A stretch of 1,078 nt of DNA from a phage. Positions 1 to 1,078 of the stretch are shown here, piece after piece (position 1 is the stretch's first letter; every line of letters starts with the position of its first letter). Where the stretch lies: the sequence record OR846416.1; one strand, 5' to 3'. The translations under genes were made by a program, and so were the position numbers. The notes under the pieces were generated by a model that made no database searches, had not been told where the DNA came from, and worked only from the letters and a program-made list of their open reading frames with translations.

Positions 1-299
<299 letters not shown>

Positions 300-307
300 T
301 GTTATCT

Positions 308-312
308 GGAGA
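308..312 (+). promoter_or_regulatory. Shine-Dalgarno ribosome-binding site for the downstream CDS
   Basis: GGAGA at 308-312, with 8 nt (AAAATAAA) between GGAG and the ATG at 320-322. The spacer is A-rich, which is typical of an efficient initiation region. Confidence 0.7.
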
Positions 313-319
313 AAATAAA

Positions 320-1078
320 ATGTTGGATATTGATAAAAGCACTGTGGACTTTCTGGTCACCGAAAATATGGTTCAGGAAGTGGAAAAAGTTCTCAGCCAT
401 GACGTTCCGCTGGTGCACACCATCGTGGAAGAGATGGTGAAGCGCGACATCGATCGTATTTATTTCGTTGCCTGCGGATCGCCACTCAACGCGGCGCAAA
501 CGGCGAAACATCTGGCAGATCGCTTTTCCGATCTTCAGGTTTACGCCATTTCCGGCTGGGAGTTCTGCGATAACACCCCATATCGCCTCGACGCTCGTTG
601 CGCGGTGATTGGCGTTTCTGACTACGGTAAAACCGAAGAGGTAATCAAAGCGCTGGAGCTGGGCCGGGCCTGCGGCGCACTCACTGCGGCGTTCACCAAA
701 CGCGCGGATAGCCCGATTACCTCGGCGGCGGAATTTAGCATTGATTATCAGGCCGACTGTATCTGGGAAATTCATCTGCTGCTCTGCTACAGCGTGGTGC
801 TGGAGATGATCACCCGCCTCGCGCCGCACGCGGAAATCGGCAAGATCAAAAACGATCTCAAACAGCTGCCGAATGCGCTCGGTTATCTGGTACGCACTTG
901 GGAAGAAAAAGGCCGCCAGCTTGGTGAACTGGCCAGCCAGTGGCCGATGATTTACACGGTTGCTGCAGGCCCGCTGCGCCCGCTGGGTTACAAAGAAGGC
1001 ATCGTGACGCTGATGGAATTTACCTGGACGCACGGCTGTGTGATTGAGAGCGGTGAGTTCCGTCACGGCCCGCTGGAG
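320..1078 (+). CDS. frlB: Fructoselysine-6-phosphate deglycase, SIS-domain (GlmS isomerase-like) protein; 3' partial, N-terminal 253 codons present
   Basis: ATG at 320 is preceded by the SD and the frame is open to the window end (759 nt, 253 codons). Translation begins MLDIDKSTVDFLVTENMVQEVEKVLSHDVPLVHTIVEEMVKRDIDRIYFVACGSPLNAAQTAKHLADRF. SIS-domain motifs are visible: F-V-A-C-G-S-P (nt 473-484) resembling the GlmS A-C-G-T-S loop, S-D-Y-G-K-T (nt 617-634) resembling the S-x-S-G-x-T motif, and G-E-F-R-H-G-P-L at the window end resembling GlmS G-E-L-K-H-G-P-L. Codon usage is E. coli-like, with no TTA, CTA or TCA codons in the covered part. Confidence 0.85.
   Translation, partial: MLDIDKSTVDFLVTENMVQEVEKVLSHDVPLVHTIVEEMVKRDIDRIYFVACGSPLNAAQTAKHLADRFSDLQVYAISGWEFCDNTPYRLDARCAVIGVSDYGKTEEVIKALELGRACGALTAAFTKRADSPITSAAEFSIDYQADCIWEIHLLLCYSVVLEMITRLAPHAEIGKIKNDLKQLPNALGYLVRTWEEKGRQLGELASQWPMIYTVAAGPLRPLGYKEGIVTLMEFTWTHGCVIESGEFRHGPLE

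Follow-up and report, generated by a model that had tools for sequence, protein, structure and literature searches.

The junction between frlA and frlB raises the question of how the downstream gene comes to be expressed: whether it is transcribed together with frlA from a promoter further upstream, and whether its translation depends on ribosomes that have just terminated on frlA. We examined this in a 1,078-nt stretch of record OR846416.1 (the window, by which we mean this whole stretch) that opens inside frlA and closes inside frlB. Read directly from the + strand, frlA ends with a TAA at 297–299 and frlB begins with an ATG at 320–322, leaving a spacer at 300–319 (tgttatctggagaaaataaa) of 20 nt with 25% G+C and 45% A. 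The RefSeq annotation of an identical O157:H7 record likewise ends frlA at 299 and starts frlB at 320, so the stop and start coordinates given in the initial annotation, along with its 20-nt spacer containing a Shine-Dalgarno (SD) sequence, proved exact to the base.

The identity of both genes is secure. The frlA portion (1–299, + strand) is the 3′ part of the gene for the fructoselysine/psicoselysine transporter, an APC-family permease; in addition to the O157:H7 match, FrlA matched the NCBIfam equivalog NF008466 with 969.8 bits (cut-off 800) and also Pfam AA_permease_2. The frlB portion (320–1078, + strand) covers the 5′ three quarters of the gene for fructoselysine 6-phosphate deglycase, which extends past the window; FrlB matched the NCBIfam equivalog NF008481 with 807.8 bits (cut-off 430) and contains a SIS domain. 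Because the NF008481 profile aligned over residues 1–340 of the 340 in FrlB, beginning at residue 1, the ATG at 320 corresponds to the N-terminus of the family, and this codon is also the annotated start and is invariant in the orthologue alignment. Antisense to frlB runs a 254-aa open reading frame (302–1066, − strand) for which Pfam gave no match; it is most likely a mere shadow of the frlB reading frame. The whole window was 100% identical to E. coli O157:H7 chromosomes and was matched in 3299 of 5426 complete E. coli genomes. The frl locus is, by that count, carried by only about 61% of complete genomes of the species. The 61 nt spanning the junction were identical in 3281 of 3298 E. coli genomes, K-12 MG1655 included, so that the K-12 literature is applicable to the junction studied here.

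Neither a signal that would end transcription nor one that would start it for frlB was detected at the junction. A consensus sigma70 tool scan returned no promoter-like site in the window, and the tool's terminator scan returned no terminator-like site on its + strand; the sole terminator-like match lay on the − strand at 933–915, inside frlB, with 1.1 such matches expected by chance. A purpose-written and deliberately permissive terminator scan, which yields many noise matches inside genes, was run over a 13-kb context and found nothing at the frlA-frlB junction; the same relaxed scan recovered plausible terminators after nirD, cysG, yhfL, frlD, and frlR. A search of both strands of the window against Rfam gave no match at E ≤ 10. 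The junction thus has no G+C-rich hairpin directly followed by a U-tract, as would mark an intrinsic terminator or attenuator, either between the cistrons or just before the second, and the sequence scans (tool and PWM) disclosed no promoter that would yield an mRNA containing the frlB SD and AUG. The gap between these two co-directional genes is, moreover, too short at 20 nt to accommodate a terminator plus a promoter.

Earlier work on frlABCD by Wiame et al. in 2002 was reportedly what Graf von Armansperg et al. followed. The latter authors described frlABCD in K-12 as a single operon whose control region lies upstream of frlA (bioRxiv 10.1101/2020.01.13.904318), with a sigma70 promoter that has a class II CRP site, a sigma32-dependent promoter further upstream, and an FrlR roadblock operator just past the start site that is relieved by fructoselysine-6-phosphate. 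During colonisation of the mouse intestine by E. coli, expression of the frl operon reportedly rises as a unit (PMC10936423). A 3′-end mapping data set (PMC7815308) has no frl entry in its supplements, and the mention of frl in PMC4448311 turned out to be a single entry, in a genome-wide table, that concerns a region at a distance of 11.8 kb. Since the junction offers neither a terminator nor a usable promoter and the published promoters lie upstream of frlA, co-transcription of frlA and frlB from a promoter upstream of frlA is supported by the sequence together with the operon status in the literature, from which the promoter location is also taken; it is, in addition, already known. From the sequence plus this operon status, we infer that polymerase from the promoters upstream of frlA (sigma70 with CRP, plus sigma32, gated by the FrlR roadblock) would read through the 20-nt spacer, because nothing at the junction stops or starts transcription. 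The earlier interpretation of this junction thus stands in part: expression of frlB from the upstream promoter agrees with our scans and with the published promoters, whereas the translational coupling that it also envisaged is not favoured by the findings below.

The frlB ribosome-binding site is strong, well placed, and open. Its SD, CTGGAG at 306–311 (+ strand), has a GGAG core (308–311) that lies 8 nt before the ATG and is ∼77% unpaired in five of six folding contexts, and the SD is conserved in 24 of 24 orthologous loci. The computed energy of the duplex between GGAG and the 16S 3′ end was −6.4 kcal/mol for the window, and the orthologues ranged from −6.4 to −8.3 kcal/mol. The initiation region around it (301–352, + strand) is A/U-rich and unstructured by folding, by comparison with orthologues, and by codon statistics. 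Few other stretches of the window have as little structure; the MFE of the region is −1.4 to 0 kcal/mol, and 40-nt segments starting at 304–313 have an MFE of 0.0 as compared to a mean of −8.0 for the window. In five of six folding contexts, the SD and AUG were ∼75–79% unpaired, against an average of ∼40%; in all 24 orthologues, the initiation region had an MFE of −3.4 to 0 kcal/mol, where background values were −7.5 to −10. The opening 15 codons of frlB point in the same direction, with a GC3 of 0.49 (vs. 0.70) and a synonymous conservation, computed across 21 Enterobacterales, of 0.76 (vs. 0.59; p = 0.005), and the GC3 of positions 320–364 is the second-lowest of 326 sliding windows in frlB. 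These codon-level features are signs of selection for an open frlB 5′ end. Selection against structure at the beginnings of genes is an established pattern, with which the low-structure start of frlB agrees.

A strong SD at the right spacing in an open region makes the frlB ribosome-binding site self-sufficient. We infer that frlB would be translated mainly by ribosomes loading de novo on its own initiation region, at the GGAG 8 nt before the AUG within an A/U-rich, essentially unstructured stretch. Such a mode of expression would be in keeping with the finding that E. coli gene pairs with SD-sized gaps are almost always polycistronic and probably initiate independently (PMC10666635). Taken as a whole, the junction is very probably an ordinary within-operon junction of the known frlABCD(R) operon, with frlB initiated mainly de novo.

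Comparison among species showed which features of the junction have been retained. A one-genome-per-species scan located FrlB relatives in 40 loci, and frlA lay directly upstream of frlB in all gammaproteobacterial loci. Our comparison set consisted of 24 of the latter, the window's own and 23 from other species, representing Escherichia, Pseudocitrobacter, Kosakonia, Yokenella, Franconibacter, Phytobacter, Citrobacter, Atlantibacter, Pantoea, Mixta, Serratia, and Pseudomonas; loci L038–L041, which come from low-identity Shigella and E. coli assemblies whose differences resemble frameshifts, were excluded as probably error-rich. The frlA stop codon was TAA in 22 of the 24 loci and TGA in the other 2. 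Gap length was 21 nt in 19 loci, 20 nt in 3, 17 nt in 1, and 33 nt in 1 (20–21 nt in 22/24), the stop-to-GGAG distance was 8 nt in 22, and the GGAG-to-ATG distance was 8–9 nt in 23. Sequence was far less constant, with 15 distinct junction sequences among the 24 loci and bases flanking CTGGAG that differ freely. The consensus fold of the 24 junctions was weak (−6.86 kcal/mol, with a covariation term of −0.23) and provided no supported pairing of the SD.

A same-strand gap of 20 nt is not in itself unusual, as the same 13-kb locus contains others of 18 nt (nirC-cysG) and 17 nt (rpe-dam); the feature that exceeds chance is the conservation of the layout across genera. This conservation is not confined to one junction. 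The frlABCDR order and the lengths of the other junctions are also conserved in Enterobacterales: the frlB-frlC gap is 48–54 nt, and frlC-frlD is a −1 overlap that was read directly only in E. coli, other loci having a similar match spacing. Because the other frl junctions are also conserved in length, the length conservation of frlA-frlB is not unique, and selection shows more clearly in the SD, which stays invariant while the sequence around it drifts. The constancy of the 8-nt stop-to-SD distance could reflect termination-related selection or, equally, the scarcity of indels in a short region. We also observed that the CT of CTGGAG (306–307) is kept in 23 of 24 loci though neighbouring spacer bases vary; in our own reading of the anti-SD register, it has no predicted 16S pairing (U opposite U), and its conservation may be phylogenetic inertia.

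The possibility of translational coupling, raised in the initial annotation, was neither demonstrated nor favoured by these data, the frlB SD being conserved, optimally spaced, and unstructured. frlB needs no coupling; re-initiation after termination on frlA is possible but unsupported by our observations, and a ribosome terminating on frlA, 20 nt before the frlB start, may now and then re-initiate there, probably as a minor contribution. A more far-reaching reading is that of substantial termination-reinitiation, in which 30S or 70S particles leaving the frlA UAA would travel ∼20 nt along the mRNA, bind at the GGAG, and begin translation at AUG 320; much of the translation of frlB would then come from reinitiation, and FrlB output would be tied to FrlA output. 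The geometry is consistent with this, as the gap is short and the distances from stop to SD (8 nt) and from SD to AUG (8–9 nt) are conserved across genera. Judging from general footprint sizes, a ribosome with UAA in its A site should have a footprint reaching roughly to the SD. However, other operon junctions are equally conserved in length, so gap conservation is not specific evidence for reinitiation, and the SD-AUG region is self-sufficient and open. The functional ATG at 320, at +20 nt, also lies outside the arrangements used to recognize reinitiation (overlap of stop and start, or −8 to about +6 nt). There is no stable structure after the stop codon, which would favour reinitiation inasmuch as a preprint (10.1101/2020.02.10.941153) proposes that such structures insulate cistrons.

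Published coupling results for the region around +20 nt are conflicting (PMC10666635 versus Tian and Salis, as reviewed in PMC12548453). In the work of Tian and Salis, coupling did not weaken over distances of −4 to +25 nt, a range that would allow re-initiation to contribute more than we have assumed, and the same review (PMC12548453) refers to early studies in which coupling was seen at about +40 nt, reduced 3- to 10-fold. Against this, the three native E. coli pairs studied in PMC10666635 behaved in a variable, pair-specific manner at +2 and +14 nt, with losses of 5, 20, and 70% already at +2 nt and of 80–100% at +38 nt, and its authors concluded that about 20 nt almost abolishes coupling. 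Moreover, a membrane permease (FrlA) and a cytosolic enzyme (FrlB) are not subunits of one complex, the class in which coupling is enriched (PMC10666635). We consider substantial reinitiation at frlB unlikely.

In addition to AUG 320, at which we believe frlB to be initiated mainly de novo, E. coli possesses an upstream ATG at 299–301 (+ strand) that overlaps the frlA stop as TAATG (297–301), fits the reinitiation distance in sequence only and in E. coli only, and is in frame with frlB through seven open codons (MLSGENK). Terminating ribosomes might use it to produce a FrlB proteoform with these seven additional N-terminal residues beside the normal protein. UAAUG, a −1 overlap, is among the commonest coupled arrangements (PMC10666635), the reading frame contains no intervening stop, and nearly every E. 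coli with the locus has the in-frame ATG. Yet it is not conserved beyond that species: in E. ruysiae the spacer is longer by one base and the same ATG, now out of frame, opens a 6-codon mini-ORF, while other genera have no ATG at the frlA stop. By our own estimate, an in-frame, open TAA+TG would arise by chance at ∼1–2% of junctions, so that some are expected genome-wide. No SD was found upstream of ATG 299–301, and both the annotation and the FrlB equivalog profile begin at ATG 320. As it lacks an upstream SD and is unconserved, ATG 299–301 is most likely a coincidence and probably not a functional start, and the extended proteoform is very unlikely. Just as improbable is a broader version, in which the 1-nt shorter spacer of E. 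coli, by bringing UAAUG into frame, would allow on-the-spot re-initiation in parallel with SD-led initiation at AUG 320; if true, this would be a two-start junction uniting both modes of operon translation. The E. ruysiae mini-ORF (about 2979–2999 of locus L003) has a TGA that ends 1 nt before the frlB ATG.

It is hardly likely at all that the junction carries a transcriptional signal of its own, be it a partial terminator or an internal promoter. The candidate for the former is a hairpin in the last codons of frlA (263–295, + strand; −14.7 kcal/mol) that ends 1 nt before the stop codon. Its tail is GTAATGTT rather than a U-tract, however, and it lies within translated RNA; shuffled sequences fold at least as stably as the local one (z = +1.23), and the hairpin sequence is confined to Escherichia, with no covariation. 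Missed by both terminator scans, unconserved, and without a U-tract, the hairpin was rejected as a terminator or conserved element and is probably incidental. The candidate for the latter is a weak promoter-like pair, TTGTCG (291–296)-N19-TAAAAT (316–321), on the + strand, which at 10.0 has the best score in the window by an approximate PWM, whose frequencies follow textbook compilations, and is matched by 4% of shuffles. Its 19-nt spacer is outside the 16–18 range of the tool, its −10-like hexamer is missing in other genera, and its predicted start falls near 328, downstream of the ATG at 320, so it cannot serve as a promoter for frlB. Neither candidate appears in the output of the tool scan, and both are restricted to Escherichia whereas the layout of the junction is conserved. 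The initial claims that the junction has no GC-rich hairpin with a U-tract and no convincing −35/−10 pair are therefore borne out, the former by the negative tool and relaxed scans and the hairpin tail, the latter by the negative tool scan and a PWM pair that would start past the ATG.

Least probable of all is that frlA coding sequence masks the frlB ribosome-binding site until ribosomes translating the end of frlA open it. One folding context (150–480) did leave the SD only 27% unpaired, but this is an end artefact in which the SD partner (472–475) lies in frlB and not in frlA, the pairing is gone in five other contexts (SD ∼77% unpaired), the initiation region has the low MFE given above here and in every orthologue, and neither the weak consensus fold nor any other conserved pairing provides a stable structure with upstream coding sequence that would hide the SD or AUG, so that unfolding-type coupling is not predicted.

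The reading of frlA-frlB as an ordinary within-operon junction agrees with its closest known counterparts, the SD-bearing short operon junctions of E. coli (PMC10666635). Like these, it joins genes on the same strand across a gap that is SD-sized yet below the length of a terminator plus a promoter, it belongs to a known polycistronic operon, and its downstream gene probably has independent initiation; local examples of the class are found in nirC-cysG (18 nt) and in rpe-dam (17 nt). It differs in that its gap of 20 nt is beyond the peak of the class at +9 to +12 nt, and nothing else distinguishes it. Coupled overlapping pairs (ATGA or TAATG) resemble it as adjacent co-directional cistrons, the more so as the E. 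coli frlA stop forms a TAATG, and the same operon contains a true −1 overlap in frlC-frlD. In contrast to such pairs, however, the functional frlB start lies at +20 nt with a strong, open ribosome-binding site of its own, the products of frlA and frlB are not complex subunits, and coupling at +20 has been reported to be reduced or variable. The frlABCD operon of K-12 (Graf von Armansperg et al., bioRxiv 10.1101/2020.01.13.904318) is the same locus: its junction is identical in MG1655, and the promoters, the CRP site, and the FrlR operator all precede frlA; the difference is that the window comes from the O157:H7 lineage, in which frlD has an amber codon.

Expression of frlB within the frlABCD transcript from its own conserved ribosome-binding site makes for a good annotation and has little significance beyond that, although this site may be useful for engineering or modelling fructoselysine catabolism. 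As a clean and conserved example at +20 nt, a distance at which reinitiation and scanning models of coupling disagree, frlA-frlB may also offer a native test case.

Elsewhere in the locus, the O157:H7 lineage has a TGG-to-TAG change in frlD, the gene for fructoselysine 6-kinase (W111amber; 8550–8552 of locus L001, about 2550 in window-equivalent numbering). The annotations of TR01 and EDL933 both treat frlD as a pseudogene, and the O157 allele of the 90 nt around codon 111 was found in 308 of 3300 E. coli genomes. Fructoselysine-6-phosphate, the FrlD product, is both the substrate of FrlB and the inducer of FrlR (bioRxiv 10.1101/2020.01.13.904318), so the operon in the window is, judging by this amber codon, probably non-functional and non-inducible in its source lineage.

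The layout changes at greater distance. Three Chloroflexota loci keep frlA and frlB adjacent with a gap of 73–74 nt, which in the two Levilinea loci (L028 and L030) contains a hairpin-like inverted repeat, and four Firmicutes loci (L031–L034) have frlA on the downstream side of frlB. The operon lacks frlC in the loci from Pantoea, Mixta, and Pseudomonas, where the order is frlA-frlB-frlD-frlR.

Two further observations concern transcription beyond the window. A sheet of EDL933 Cappable-seq start sites belonging to PMC10469882, which we took to hold those TSSs that lie downstream of annotated start codons, has a TSS at 4309973 (+), 90 nt inside frlC, in all eight growth conditions, and a second at 4311132 within frlD in one condition; the former entry suggests constitutive internal transcription inside frlC. 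In addition, the 99-nt gap between frlD and frlR contains a strong, perfect hairpin (ACGUUGGCGUGAGCAUCUUCACGCCAACGU; −20.3 kcal/mol; 9011–9040 of locus L001) with a weak T-tail (GCTGTTACTT), which may act as a partial terminator or as an insulator between frlABCD and frlR.
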